Source of the DNA: Escherichia coli
GTDB lineage: Bacteria > Pseudomonadota > Gammaproteobacteria > Enterobacterales > Enterobacteriaceae
Direction: 5' to 3' (one strand)
Assembly: GCF_003018115.1 (NCBI RefSeq)
Contig: NZ_CP027458.1
DNA: 64,000 nucleotides
The position numbers were made by a program. Below, piece by piece: positions 54,301 through 60,300 of this stretch. Position 1 is the first letter of the stretch. Each line of letters begins with the position of its first letter.

Positions 54301-57300
54301 CTCATCAATAGATGAAGTAAACCTCCCGTATCTACACATCCTGAATGCCAACTACGAACATAACTCCCCCCCCTCACTTAGCCAATAATCCCACTTTCCA
54401 ATATATGTCAGCAGTAAATAACCTCATAAATGACGAGAAAAGTTGTCGCAAGGTCCATCTAACGATGATTAGGTGATGACAAAATAACCAATATAAGTGA
54501 TCTGAAAAGCTTTCCTTAACACTGTAAATGCAGCCAAATCAACACCTCAGGCTCTTCTGAAAGAAAAAAGCCATCATATATATGAGTAAAAATCATACAA
54601 CCAACACTATTCAATAACATTTAATTAAGAAAAATAACAATGAAACGATTCAGCAAACATTTCCAACTAGAAAAATACTTTATATATCCCTTCCGGTTTT
54701 ATGAACGAGACCTGATCTCTCCTGGAGAGGCAAATGTAAATTTGTCACACAGACGACAGCAGCCGGAACATTACAAATGCCGCCTGACAGACCAATAACA
54801 ACAGTAATGATGCTGAATTTGTTTTCATTGAGGAAATGACATGCACCAATACCTGCTTTTTTTACTGGGACTTACCCCACTTTTGACAATGATCATTTTG
54901 ATTCTGAAAGTCAAAATGCCCATACATTATGCCGTACTCAGCACACTCTTTATTACACTGATTCTTGCAATTTTGTTCTGGCACACACCAGTTCAGGACC
55001 TGGGCTCTGCTGTTGTATACGGAGCAATCAAAGGTCTGTGGCCGATAGTAATAGTCATACTTGCGGCCATTTACAGCTATAACCTGATGAATGCGACAAA
55101 AAGCATGAACATTCTGCGAAATGTTCTGGCCGGTGTCAGTGATGATAAACGTATCCAGGTGCTTCTTATCTCATGGTGTTTTGGTGGATTTCTTGAGGCG
55201 GCGGCTGGGTACGGTACAGCTGTAGCAATCCCCATTGGTATACTCATTGCTCTGGGCTTTAACCCTCTAAAAGCCGCAATTGCATCATTGGTTGCTAATA
55301 CAGTACCTACCGCGTTTGGTGCTGTCGGCATACCTGTATCAGTACTTGCTGAACAGGTAAATTTACCCGTAACAACCCTCAGTGGGACGATTATTCTTCA
55401 GTTGGCAGCGTTCAACATTCTGCTTCCCTTCGTTATAGTCGCTATTATTGGGGAAGGCCTGAAGGCTATACGAGGCGTTGGGTTCATGACCTTAATGTGC
55501 GGTGTGAGCACATTAATCCCACAGTATCTGATGGCTGTTTATCTTGGCGCAGAACTTCCGGCTTTCGCTGGAAGTCTGGTCAGCCTGATCGTTATTGTCA
55601 TTATGGCTAAAAGCCGTAAAGAAAAAACAGAACCAGAATTTCTTATTGAGGTTTCAGGAGATAGCGCTGGTGCACTTTCATATTCCCGTGGGGAGTTGTT
55701 CCGGGCCTGCTCAATCTACATCCTGATTTTTCTGTTTATTCTTCTTTGCTCTCCATTGTTCCCGACTGTAAAAAGTGCAGTATCTCAGGTTGCTTCGTCA
55801 CTCAGCTTCCCTCTGACTGACGGCAACAATCTGTCTATGACGCTCGAATGGATCGCAACCCCCGGTGTTCTGATCATCATTGCCAGCGTTATTGGCGGAT
55901 TGATTCAGAAAGCATCTATGTCATGCCTGTTAAACGTATTTGTCAGTACGGTAAAACAGCTCAAAAACTCCATTATTGCTATTTCTGCAATTGTCGCTAT
56001 GGCAACGGTAATGGATATTTGTGGGTTAATTGGCACACTGGCACAGAGCCTTGTGGATCTGACAGGTGGAGCCTACCTCTTCATTGCTCCAGTTATAGGT
56101 GCTCTTGGTACATTTGTTACTGGCAGTGACACAAACTCCAACATTCTGTTCGGTAAGTTGCAGACTACTGCGGCTGAAAAGTTGCACGTAGATCCACTCT
56201 GGCTGGCTGCTGCAAACACATCTGGCGCGACCGGTGGCAAGATGATTTCTCCCCAAAGTATTGCTATCGCTGTTTCTGCCACACGTATGGATGGTCAGGG
56301 CAGCGTCATTATGTCCGGGACACTGAAATACTGCTTTGTCTATATTGTTATCCTTGGACTGAAAATAGGCCTGATCTACCACCTGTTCATGGTCTGAGAA
56401 AAGAGCAACAAAAGGACATGGGATATTAATCAACAGGAGATATTTCTGTGAATGTTAACTTTTTCGTCACCTGCATTGGTGATGCTTTTAAATCCCGGAT
56501 GGCTCAAAACAGCGTGCTGTTACTGGAGCAATTGGGTTGCAATGTCCATTTTCCCGAAAAACAGGGATGTTGCGGTCAGCCAGCGATAAATGGCGGTTAT
56601 GTTCGTGATGCCATCCCGGGCATGAAAAACGTCATATCTTCGCTGGAAGAGAATGACTGGCCAGTTATATCTCCCGCGGGATCATGCACCTACACGATAA
56701 AAAATTATGCTCATTATCTCAGTGATGAGCCTGAATGGGCTGCTCGGGCTGAAAAAGTGGCTGAACGTCTGCATGATTTGACATCCTTTATCGTAAATCA
56801 TCTCGGCATCACTGATGTAGGAGCAAGACTCAATGGCCGTGCAGTGTACCATCCTTCATGCAGCCTTTCCCGTAAACTGGGTGTAACCAGAGAACCGCTT
56901 TTGCTGCTTGAGAATGTGCGGGGACTTGAGCTGCTGCCGTTTCATGCTCAGGAAACGTGCTGCGGGTTTGGCGGCACGTTCTCTGTAAAAATGGCGGAGA
57001 TCTCTGGTGAAATGGTGAAAGAGAAAGTCGGGCATATTATGGATGTTAAACCTGATTTTCTTATCGGGGCTGACGCCAGTTGCCTGCTAAACATCGGCGG
57101 TCGGCTTAACCGTGAAGGGCATCCTGTAAAAGTGATGCATATTGCTGAAGTCCTGATGCACAGATGAGGTAAACAGAATGTCTTTGAAAACAAGTGATAT
57201 CAGGTTTAAAGAGCGTATCCGTATTCAGATTCAGGATCCGATCATGCGAAAAGCTGTTGCTAACGCACAGGAGCGCATAGGGACTAATCGGCAGAAAATG

Positions 57301-60300
57301 GTTGATGAACTGGGGCACTGGGAGGAATGGCGTTCACGTGCTGAACAAATTCGTCGGCATGTTCTGGAAAATCTTGATGCCTATTTGTATCAATTGTCCG
57401 AAAAGGTTACTGCGAATGGCGGGCATGTATATTTTGCCCGTACCAGAGAGGATGCAACCAGTTACATACTGAAGGTGGCGAAAGAAAAAAACGCCAGGAA
57501 GGTTGTTAAATCCAAATCAATGGTGACTGAGGAAATTGGCATGAACGCCGTTCTTCAGAAAGCCGGGATACCCGTGATTGAAACAGACCTTGGGGAATAC
57601 ATTCTTCAGCTTGCACACGAACCGCCATCACATGTGGTTGTTCCGGCAATACATAAAGATCGCCATCAAATCCGCAGAGTGTTAAACGAACATCTGGGGT
57701 ATGAGGGACCAGAAACTCCTGAAGCAATGACATTGTTCATTCGAGAGAAAATCAGACAAGATTTTCTCAGTGCAGAAGTTGGTGTAACGGGATGTAACTT
57801 TGCTGTTGCAGAAACAGGGTCAGTCTGCCTTGTTACAAACGAAGGCAACGCACGTATGTGCACCACATTACCTAAAACACATATTGCTGTTATGGGGATG
57901 GAGCGTATTGCTCCGACATTCCAGGAGGTGGATGTTCTTATTACCATGCTTGCAAGGAGTGCTGTCGGGGCCAGACTGACGGGTTATAACACCTGGCTTA
58001 CAGGTCCAAGAGAAGAAGGACATGTTGACGGCCCGGAAGAGTTCCATCTCGTCATTGTTGACAATGGGCGTTCAGAGGTTCTCGGCTCAGAATTCAGCGA
58101 TGTATTGCGCTGTATTCGCTGCGGTGCCTGTATTAATACCTGTCCCGCTTATCGCCAGATTGGTGGACATGGCTATGGCTCAATCTACCCGGGCCCAATC
58201 GGAGCAGTTATTTCCCCGTTGCTTGGTGGCTATGAAGACTTTAAGGACTTACCTTATGCCTGTTCATTGTGCACTGCCTGCAATGGGGTATGTCCGGTAA
58301 AAATACCTCTGGCACAACTAATACAAACACATCGGCAGGTTATGGCAGAGACCAAAATAACACCATCAACAGAACGCCGTATAACAGGAATATTCAATTA
58401 CGTAAACAGTCATCCGGCATTGTGGAAAGTTGGCATGATTGCTGGCGCGAAAACAGCCAGTCTGTTCATCAGGAAAGGAAAAACGCCGATTAGTGTTGGA
58501 GCGATAAAAGAATGGACTGAAGCCAGAGACCTGCCATCACCTGATGGAGAAAGCTTCCGTAGTTGGTTCAAGCGACATAAGAAGGAGGGGTAATTTTATG
58601 GAAAACAGAGAGGAATTTCTCGTTGCGATCGCCAGAAAGCTTGGCAGACCAGTAAGACATATTCCCGAAGCAATGCCGGAGCCTGTAAATACGCTGGCTA
58701 CAACACGTTTAACTGAGTTGACATCAGACCAACGCTGTGAGGCGTTTATTAAATTTGCCTCGGAAGTGATGCTTGCCGAGTGTGTTCTGGTGTCGCCTGA
58801 GAACGCACCATCAAAAGCCTTAGACATCTGTTGGAAGTTCGGTTCCGGGCCAGTCATTATCAGCAACGATCAACGACTGGTCGATACAGGGATTACGCCA
58901 TTGCTACAAAAAGAAATGGGCGCTGCTCTGTGGGATCCGGAGAAGGGCGATGAAAATATCCATATTGCTGAAAAGGCAAAAACTGGTGTTGTTTTCGCTG
59001 AGTATGGGCTGACAGAATCAGGAGGCATTGTCTTATTCTCCGCACCAGAACGTGGGCGCTCAGTAAGCCTTTTGCCTGAAGCATCATTATTTGTTTTACG
59101 TAAAAGCACCATTCTTCCCAGAGTGGCTCAGCTTGCGAAGAAACTTCATGATATGGCTCAAAAAGGACAACGAATGCCTTCCTGTATCAATATAATTGGA
59201 GGACCAAGTTCAACTGCCGATATAGAGTTGATTAAAGTTGTCGGTGTTCATGGCCCTGTATATGCAGCCTATCTAATCATTGATGACTGCAAATAACAAT
59301 TATCCTCATGCCTGAGCCAATATATATAGTTCCGGCTCAGGCATCATCATTTTCATCTGTTATTTTCTCTATCAGCCCCAAATTTTCCTGTGATGTCGCA
59401 TCGGTTGAAAGTCCAACAAGCGCATTAGACATTAAAGCGTAAGCATCAACGGATGCGCCATATTGACAAAAAACGTGGCGGCCGACAATGAAAAGTAAGC
59501 GCTCCGTCTGTGACGTTTTGTGATGGTTGTCCTATCTGGCTACAATCGCGTCCATCGATATTAAAGTGCGCCCAGATCCTGGACAACTTATGCTGCCTGA
59601 CTCAATCGATATTGTACTGGGCTAAGACCGCCAAGTTTTTCCTTTATCCTCAATTAATTATAATTGTTTATGTAATCGATGATGTCTCGCTTTAAGCCCT
59701 CCACATTTTTATATTCATTGAGGTAATAACATTCTGATTTCAATGTTCCCAAAAAGCTCTCTATAACTGCATTATCAAGACAATTTCCCCGGCAAGACAT
59801 ACTCTGGACTATGCCGCTATCCTTTAACCATCGTTGCCACCGGGACATCTGATATTGCCAACCTTGATCGCTGTGCAGTATGGGGTGTTCATCTTTCGAC
59901 AGCTGTTTCAGCTCATCCGTAAACATAGTCGGCACCATTGAAGGTTTAGAACGAGTAGCGAGGTTATAGGAAATTATTTCTCCATTATAAAGATCCATGA
60001 TTGGCGATAAATACAGCTTCTTGCCATTAACTTTAAATTCAGTGACATCTGTAACCCACTTCTCGTTGGGGCATTTTGCATCAAAAACTGATAATCCCGG
60101 AAACGTACTTAAGGGCAGAGGGGGACCGCCTTCTGCCCTTTAATAAACAGGATATTAAGATTACTCGCCCAGGACTGCCAGTATCAAAAATGCACCTGCA
60201 GTAAGCATGGCAAGTTTTTCCCATACAATGGGACTGTCATCCCTCTTTTGTTTTCTTTTTCTCATATAAATGATGGTGTTTACTCAGACGCGAGAGTATT

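Follow-up and report, generated by a model that had tools for sequence, protein, structure and literature searches.

The stretch of DNA analysed here (the window) comprises 64,000 nucleotides of contig NZ_CP027458.1 from Escherichia coli (assembly GCF_003018115.1), and all coordinates refer to positions in this whole 64-kb window. At 54841-59296 the plus strand carries a cassette of four tightly packed genes, which encode a permease of the LctP family and the three subunits of a LutABC-type iron-sulfur enzyme. Judged by its sequence, this cassette is very probably an accessory operon for L-lactate utilisation, lutP-lutABC, which moves horizontally and here belongs to the cargo of an enterohaemolysin plasmid of the pO113 family. 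An earlier note on this DNA had described a complete permease plus lutABC (ykgEFG-like) operon with strong ribosome-binding sites and a terminator, and our results agree with this description. Open reading frame (ORF) calls, annotated homologues and profiles show four intact, full-length ORFs with full-length profile matches, each start codon is preceded at a distance of 7-9 nt by a Shine-Dalgarno sequence (GAGGAA, AGGAG, GAGG and AGGAGG in the order of the genes), and folding predicts a stable hairpin behind the last gene. Pseudogenisation, which the note had named as a finding that would speak against the operon, was considered and ruled out, since all four ORFs have the full length of their annotated homologues and profiles and every ligand cysteine is kept.

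The spacers between the genes measure 50 bp (permease-lutA), 10 bp (lutA-lutB) and 4 bp (lutB-lutC). A mechanical ORF call placed the start of lutC at the in-frame ATG at 58544, inside lutB. We rejected this start in favour of 58598, because AGGAGG lies 8-9 nt before it and all annotated homologues share it. The hairpin starts twelve bases past the lutC stop codon and has an 11-bp stem, a 15-nt loop and a partly U-rich tail (ΔG -20 kcal/mol, z = -5.6 against shuffled sequences). A scan with the consensus for intrinsic terminators gave no match after lutC, since the 15-nt loop is too long for this consensus. Transcription of all four genes as one unit probably starts in the AT-rich upstream region and ends at the hairpin. 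The description of the locus as low-GC cargo applies to the flanks, namely the 1.1-kb upstream spacer (34% G+C) and the downstream stretch (42%), but the genes themselves are only mildly low (46.3% against 48.1% for the whole window).

The permease matches the Pfam family PF02652 (Lactate_perm) over residues 7-509 of 518 (E = 2e-130) and the LctP-family model TIGR00795 over its full length (408 bits, cutoff 341). It fails the equivalog models of both LldP (NF007740, 275 bits against a cutoff of 918) and GlcA (NF007249, 249 bits against a cutoff of 1121). By these scores it is a member of the LctP family and not an orthologue of LldP or GlcA. LutA, the gene of which adjoins lutB, contains two CCG domains (PF02754) at residues 3-85 and 133-216, and its eight motif cysteines are the same in all 49 homologues compared, the window copy included. 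LutB matches the LutB/LldF equivalog TIGR00273 over its full length (722 bits, cutoff 445) and consists of a LUD domain, a Fer4_8 domain (4Fe-4S dicluster) and the C-terminal LutB_C domain, and its two CxxCxxCxxxC motifs (C312/315/318/322 and C362/365/368/372) are likewise invariant in the 49 homologues. In LutC, which no NCBIfam model matched, the LUD domain (PF02589) extends over residues 60-228.

This is the same set of proteins as in LutABC of Bacillus subtilis and LldEFG of Shewanella oneidensis, i.e. a LutA with CCG domains, a LutB that combines a LUD domain with two 4Fe-4S motifs and a LutC with a LUD domain, although these archetypes are distant in sequence (in C. necator, for instance, the homologues share 30-40% identity with YkgEFG). 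From these assignments we infer respiratory L-lactate oxidation as the predicted function of the cassette, including its substrate, its stereospecificity, the coupling to the quinone pool and its expression. The permease would import lactate, probably by proton symport as LldP does, and LutA, LutB and LutC would form an iron-sulfur complex that oxidises L-lactate to pyruvate independently of NAD. The electrons would then reach the respiratory chain by way of two 4Fe-4S clusters in LutB and the clusters in the CCG domains of LutA, and oxygen or nitrate would serve as terminal acceptor. YkgEFG of E. coli MP1 has been described as a respiratory L-lactate dehydrogenase like LutABC of Bacillus and LldEFG of Shewanella, and it is active with nitrate (PMC9701030). 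The combination of an LctP-family permease with a respiratory L-lactate dehydrogenase in one operon is also found in lldPRD, which differs from the cassette by the unrelated enzyme LldD and by a cis-encoded regulator, LldR.

A comparison of the cassette with ykgEFG and lldP of the host, which the earlier note had proposed, revealed a ykgEFG-like paralogue and not a copy. The amino acid identity to the K-12 proteins is 77% for LutA/YkgE, 83% for LutB/YkgF, 65% for LutC/YkgG and 34% for the permease and LldP. The core operon ykgEFG (b0306-b0308) has the same three-subunit architecture and the same domains as lutABC of the cassette, but it has no adjacent permease, possesses a perfect operator for the regulator YieP and appears to be vertically inherited, whereas the cassette belongs to a separate deep clade. 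A recent duplication of the host genes ykgEFG and lldP was rejected because of these identities, the separate clade and the lower G+C content at third codon positions (GC3) of the cassette. The phylogeny thus identifies the cassette as a second, deep-branching paralogue of ykgEFG, with a linked permease that the core operon of E. coli lacks. Beside the cassette, the hosts almost always own core ykgEFG, lldPRD and dld. Since core ykgEFG was found in 5163 of 5426 E. coli genomes and is thus nearly universal, the plasmid provides a second isoenzyme and not a missing function.

Permease orthologues with 66-77% identity are present in many Enterobacterales, as a scan with one genome per species revealed. 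The order permease-lutA-lutB-lutC is kept in Edwardsiella, Pectobacterium, Samsonia, Serratia, Dickeya, Mixta, Kosakonia, Proteus, Budviciaceae and Sutterella, and in Citrobacter the permease gene is divergent from lutABC. This conserved linkage across genera ties the permease subfamily functionally to LutABC. In neighbour-joining trees YkgEFG of K-12 groups with LutABC of Citrobacter (92% identity), which suggests that the core operon is vertically inherited and that its permease was lost in E. coli. The mobile alleles form a deep clade of their own, which is about equidistant (~77-78%) from Enterobacteriaceae, Pectobacteriaceae and Hafniaceae, and their base composition differs from that of ykgEFG (GC3 39-46% vs 49-53%, G+C 46% vs 50-52%). 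The search for a donor of the permease, again with one genome per species, yielded no candidate with an identity between the 92% of Escherichia itself and the 77% of Edwardsiella and Pectobacterium. Because of the deep separate clade, the equidistance and the lower GC3, the cassette might stem either from an unsampled lineage of Enterobacterales or from a long residence in the mobile gene pool.

Metabolic modules of this kind had been regarded in the earlier note as usually chromosomal, so that carriage on a virulence plasmid appeared unusual. This part cannot be maintained, since the same cassette occurs in pO113, on about 60 plasmids in the database PLSDB and in about 130 chromosomes, and since one chromosomal island carrying it has been published. 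In PLSDB we identified 64 plasmids with the cassette, of which 60 carry it in full length and 61 are predicted to be conjugative. Their hosts are mostly Escherichia (with one record from E. fergusonii), and two plasmids are from Salmonella. The plasmid backbones are of the IncFIB/IncI type, but also of the unrelated types IncFIA/FIC (a blood isolate) and IncFIB/FII (Salmonella). Among 5,426 complete E. coli genomes, 203 possess a full-length copy, with 79 places on plasmids and the rest on chromosomes. The chromosomal copies are located in mobile islands at thrW (tRNA-Thr, beside a tyrosine integrase), at pheV (tRNA-Phe) and in the mcrBC/hsd region, and each of them lies between a fragment of a peptide ABC-transporter gene and a type I restriction system. 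The pheV island with lutP-lutABC-hsdMSR has already been described for uropathogenic E. coli of sequence type (ST) 127 (PMC9769692), and the genome paper on pO113 nowhere mentions the lactate genes (PMC2681110). The cassette is therefore not new, since the annotations of pO113 and about 60 further plasmids already include it and its chromosomal twin has been published.

The earlier note had placed the operon between an adhesin locus and a remnant of an insertion sequence (IS) of the IS3 family on a virulence plasmid, and we verified both flanks. The window also carries ehxCABD, an espP-like autotransporter gene, the F-type genes traB and traK, parB and umuC. The gene order is ehxCABD, adhesin, regulator, lactate cassette and espP. 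The part from 40000 to 64000 aligns over 94% with the plasmid p_STEC1587_1 of Shiga toxin-producing E. coli (STEC) in unchanged order, and the homology to pO113 (NC_007365.1) is unbroken over 54510-61700. Because of this collinearity and this continuous homology, the surrounding element is a region of a pO113-family enterohaemolysin plasmid, i.e. of a STEC virulence plasmid. In pO113 (HS453_RS00695-00710) and about 60 STEC plasmids the four genes agree with those of the window in order, lengths and start codons, and in RefSeq those of pO113 are labelled L-lactate permease, (Fe-S)-binding protein, LutB/LldF family protein and lactate utilization protein C. The neighbours are alike as well, with ehxCABD and a YadA-like/Sab adhesin plus its regulator on one side and espP on the other. 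There are also differences, as pO113 contains about 4.6 kb of extra DNA between the adhesin regulator and the cassette and has an IncI-type transfer region, while the window has F-type tra genes. The block of ehx, adhesin, lactate and espP genes is therefore present on more than one backbone.

All four genes of the window show a low ratio of nonsynonymous to synonymous divergence (dN/dS 0.03-0.13) in comparison with four other E. coli alleles, and the synonymous divergence (dS) reaches 0.56 in the permease gene (permease dN/dS 0.07-0.09 against the island alleles, from which it is deeply diverged at a dS of ~0.5). All four genes are thus under strong purifying selection, and together with the invariant ligand cysteines this shows that they are functional and selected for their function.

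The window copy is a recombinant of plasmid and chromosomal sequences, and plasmid and island copies evidently exchange sequence. The cassette moves and recombines between plasmids and chromosomal islands. In a sliding-window comparison, the window is 100% identical to pO113 from 54793 to ~56700 (82-92% against chromosomal alleles). Between ~56750 and ~59000 its identity of 100% is to the chromosomal allele found in strain E400634, and pO113 falls to 84-95% in two patches there. From 59091 onwards the rest of the cassette resembles pO113 once more. At the protein level the permease is 99.8% identical to that of pO113 and LutC just 91.8%. The lutB DNA of the window is 100% identical to lutB of E400634. 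The two patches (~56700-57300 and ~58300-59050), in which the window carries the chromosomal-island allele unlike pO113, explain why the cassette is only 97.0-97.6% identical to pO113 and its relatives and why no plasmid in the database exceeds 97.6%. An artificially diverged window as the cause of best matches of ~97% was considered and rejected, since ehxA of the window is 100% identical to that of O91:H21 plasmids and the patches are 100% chromosomal allele. The islands (pheV, thrW, mcrBC/hsd; lutP-lutABC-hsdMSR) carry the same four genes with 89-94% nucleotide identity, but they are flanked by an integrase, the peptide-ABC-transporter fragment and type I restriction genes, in contrast to the virulence genes beside the plasmid copies. 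The high-identity homology between plasmid and island copies begins 48 bp before the start codon of the permease gene and ends 5 bp after the stop codon of lutC, at 59301. Since it stops there, the terminal hairpin is specific to the plasmid lineage and absent from the island copies. Table 1 collects the features of the operon, its upstream region and its neighbours.

Table 1. Coordinates of the lactate cassette, its upstream and downstream elements and the neighbouring features in the 64-kb window
Feature	Position	Strand	Remarks
LctP-family permease	54841-56397	+	518 aa, intact; named lutP in the paper on the ST127 island
lutA / ykgE-like Fe-S subunit	56448-57167	+	239 aa, GTG start, two CCG domains
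lutB / ykgF-like subunit	57178-58593	+	471 aa; LUD, two 4Fe-4S motifs, LutB_C
lutC / ykgG-like subunit	58598-59296	+	232 aa, LUD domain, begins MENREEF
Hairpin, probable operon terminator	59308-59344	+	ATGCCTGAGCC - 15 nt - GGCTCAGGCAT then CAUCAUUUUCAUC
Conserved non-coding block, candidate promoter/regulatory region	54608-54684	+	-233 to -157, blastn and alignment
Degenerate YieP-type (GntR-family) operator candidate	54740-54754	.	ATTTGTCACACAGAC; 3 mismatches to ATTTGTATGACAAAT
Sigma-70-like hexamers CTGACA-16-AATGAT	54784-54811	+	30 bp before permease ATG, consensus match only
YadA-like trimeric autotransporter adhesin	49128-53441	-	1437 aa
Small adhesin regulator gene	53457-53738	-	93 aa
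IS3-family transposase, C-terminal remnant	59654-59998	-	NF033516, 131 bits, profile positions 239-352 of 369

The upstream region contains a conserved block of about 77 bp, which is ~83% identical between plasmid and chromosomal-island copies, with different surrounding DNA. Sigma-70-like hexamers are present in front of the permease gene, but since such hexamers are not enriched over shuffled sequences (13 found, 15.7 expected), we do not claim a promoter. No match to a structured RNA or riboswitch was found in the leader with Rfam at E <= 1. A cis-encoded regulator gene is present neither in the window nor in the flanks of seven orthologous operons from other genera of the Enterobacterales. 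The archetypes have regulators of their own, LutR (GntR family) in Bacillus and LlpR in Shewanella, in contrast to the cassette, which carries no regulator gene. The core operon ykgEFG is repressed about ten-fold by YieP, a regulator of the GntR family that binds atTTGTaTGAcaAAT, with the palindromic consensus ATTTGTATGACAAAT (PMC7642389). In K-12 a perfect site lies 131 bp upstream of ykgE. Across 41 loci from Enterobacterales, 18 kb of permease-upstream DNA contain 22 sites with <=2 mismatches and the remaining 558 kb contain 15, and by their position these 15 also belong to the upstream or permease-lutA non-coding DNA of the operon. The YieP operator thus appears to be an ancestral feature of the operon in several lineages. 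Near-perfect palindromes of the YieP type (ATTTGTAATACAAAT, ATTTGTATGACAATT) also occur at extra non-coding spots of the operon (position 8538 of loci L031 and L041, 6068 of L034 and ~5680-6015 of L036-L048), between permease and lutA in Pragia and Leminorella and ~1 kb upstream in Proteus, which hints at multiple YieP operators per operon.

In the window and in pO113 only a YieP-like site with three mismatches is left at -101, with all mismatches in one half-site and the other half intact, and a copy on a Salmonella plasmid has a relic with four mismatches at the same place. In the island alleles such a site is absent, even in degenerate form, from the variable upstream segment. This is a weak suggestion that the mobile cassette may be partly or wholly freed of YieP control. 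It is therefore possible, if only tentatively so, that the cassette is a functional but deregulated or differently regulated lactate operon, which lost its YieP site, is expressed when core ykgEFG is off and is maintained for this reason. The strength of the YieP repression, the perfect site in K-12, the near confinement of close sites to the non-coding DNA of the operon and their decay in the mobile copies would all fit. However, matches with three mismatches are expected by chance about 2.6 times per 64 kb, and a half-intact site might still bind YieP. Moreover, the vertical operons of Pectobacterium, Samsonia and Dickeya also have no site with <=3 mismatches within 450 bp, and other regulators or the silencing of the 34% G+C upstream region by H-NS could dominate.

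Several observations weigh against an L-lactate operon that matters to its host. The host already possesses LldD, Dld, YkgEFG, LldP and GlcA, so that the module is possibly redundant, and a core ykgEFG mutant had no defect in mouse colitis models, in which LldD mattered (PMC9701030). The low identity of the permease to LldP and its scores far under the LldP and GlcA cutoffs leave lactate as a predicted substrate only. A search of the Protein Data Bank (PDB) found no solved structure of an LctP permease or of LutB, with no relative for the permease and for LutB only a weak match to an HdrC ferredoxin domain, and LutABC contains no recognisable flavin domain. A search of the open-access literature found no paper on the plasmid copy. 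Finally, about 690 further E. coli chromosomes, ST131 among them, retain just a permease fragment of ~500 bp, and therefore the module is often lost. In the ST131 chromosome NZ_OX637961.1 (locus L005, 5997-6506) this fragment is 86% identical, annotated as a pseudogene and located amid IS3/IS66 debris a few kb from iha, so that large lineages of extraintestinal pathogenic E. coli appear to have fixed a decayed copy of the cassette.

With respect to these points, it might be argued that the cassette is neutral, hitch-hiking cargo, which came along with IS elements, duplicates what the lactate genes of the host already provide and does not raise the fitness of either plasmid or host. The near universality of core ykgEFG and the presence of lldPRD in the hosts, the IS debris on the flanks, the fact that just ~10% of the plasmids with ehxA in PLSDB carry the cassette (60-64 of 576), the frequent decay seen in the permease fragments and the missing in vivo phenotype of the core ykgEFG mutant (PMC9701030) all agree with this. 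Nevertheless we regard it as unlikely, since dN/dS is low in all four genes despite their deep synonymous divergence, every cofactor ligand is retained, the genes have remained linked and undamaged in several unrelated settings, both plasmid backbones and island sites, and the long identical tracts between plasmid and chromosome indicate a recent exchange of functional alleles. Less probable still, and in our view improbable altogether, is the idea that the operon mainly handles some short hydroxy acid different from L-lactate, for example glycolate, D-lactate or 3-hydroxypropionate. One could think of such a substrate, since the permease represents a distinct LctP subfamily, the specificity of LutABC is not constrained by structure or enzymology and the YieP regulon was uncovered via tolerance to 3-hydroxypropionate (PMC7642389). 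But LutABC/LldEFG of B. subtilis, S. oneidensis and E. coli MP1 are called L-lactate dehydrogenases (PMC9701030), the 77-83% identity of the Fe-S subunits to YkgE and YkgF makes a change of substrate unlikely, and deletion of ykgEFG had no effect on 3-hydroxypropionate tolerance like that of yohJK (PMC7642389).

If the cassette is a functional L-lactate operon, an adaptive role in the gut is plausible. The earlier note had taken its presence on the plasmid as a sign of selection for lactate use in the gut or at mucosal sites, but in the one in vivo test that we found, on mouse colitis models, core YkgEFG had no effect on fitness (PMC9701030). STEC live in habitats that are rich in lactate, such as the cattle intestine and meat. 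Lactate is also a significant source of carbon and electrons for Enterobacteriaceae in the inflamed gut (PMC9701030). One could go further and assume that the cassette is a niche-adaptation factor of STEC without the locus of enterocyte effacement (LEE) and of other E. coli, i.e. a foreign L-lactate module with its own permease, acquired from an unsampled donor among the Enterobacterales, which escapes repression through its decayed YieP operator and has been selected while shuttling between plasmid and island. This combined scenario is doubtful, but if true, it would imply an advantage where lactate abounds, for instance in the grain-fed bovine gut, on meat or on inflamed mucosa. A self-sufficient lactate module on a plasmid, in linkage with genes for haemolysin, adhesin and protease, would illustrate how metabolic and virulence traits can travel together. 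In addition, a cassette that is expressed unlike the repressed core ykgEFG could explain why the core operon has no in vivo phenotype despite the enrichment of lactate genes in colitis metagenomes. Mainly, however, the present analysis documents a known and annotated, but little-studied accessory operon, in other words an ordinary accessory metabolic module. What it adds are the deep foreign paralogue lineage, the linked permease, the strong purifying selection, the mosaic of plasmid and chromosomal sequence and the degenerate YieP operator. In practical terms, the cassette is a well-defined target for simple knockout and complementation work.

The neighbourhood of the cassette shows some further features. 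The adhesin module on the minus strand (48300-53738) contains as its third gene one for a 267-aa protein of the OmpA family, which matches TpgA, the peptidoglycan-associated partner of trimeric autotransporters, with 144 bits, i.e. below the cutoff of 350 bits. In blastn comparisons the adhesin has merely short matches to pO113 (the gene start and the regulator, 74-81% identity), and its allele is that of p_STEC1587_1-like plasmids. Just upstream of the regulator gene on the minus strand, in the gap that separates the adhesin locus from the lactate operon, lies a stretch of ~200 bp (53760-53960) of extremely A/C-rich, low-complexity DNA with AAAAC and AACAA runs and an AT skew of +0.38.

The right-hand border of the cargo segment is formed by the IS3 remnant. 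On the minus strand at 59337-59573 we found the counterpart of WP_001369996.1, a hypothetical protein encoded downstream of lutC in pO113. In the window it has an in-frame stop codon and a divergent N-terminal part, so that it is either a doubtful gene or inactivated here. Backbone genes are located at 4615-6773 and 28251-29243, comprising the F-type genes traB and traK and a umuC-like gene that is truncated at 330 aa. Beyond the IS3 remnant, a 103-aa ORF at 60237-60548 on the minus strand resembles the ANR (AraC negative regulator) family, although with 27.9 bits it stays below the NF033650 cutoff of 32, and ANR-family genes are annotated near the cassette in the plasmid pMB7355_2, too.

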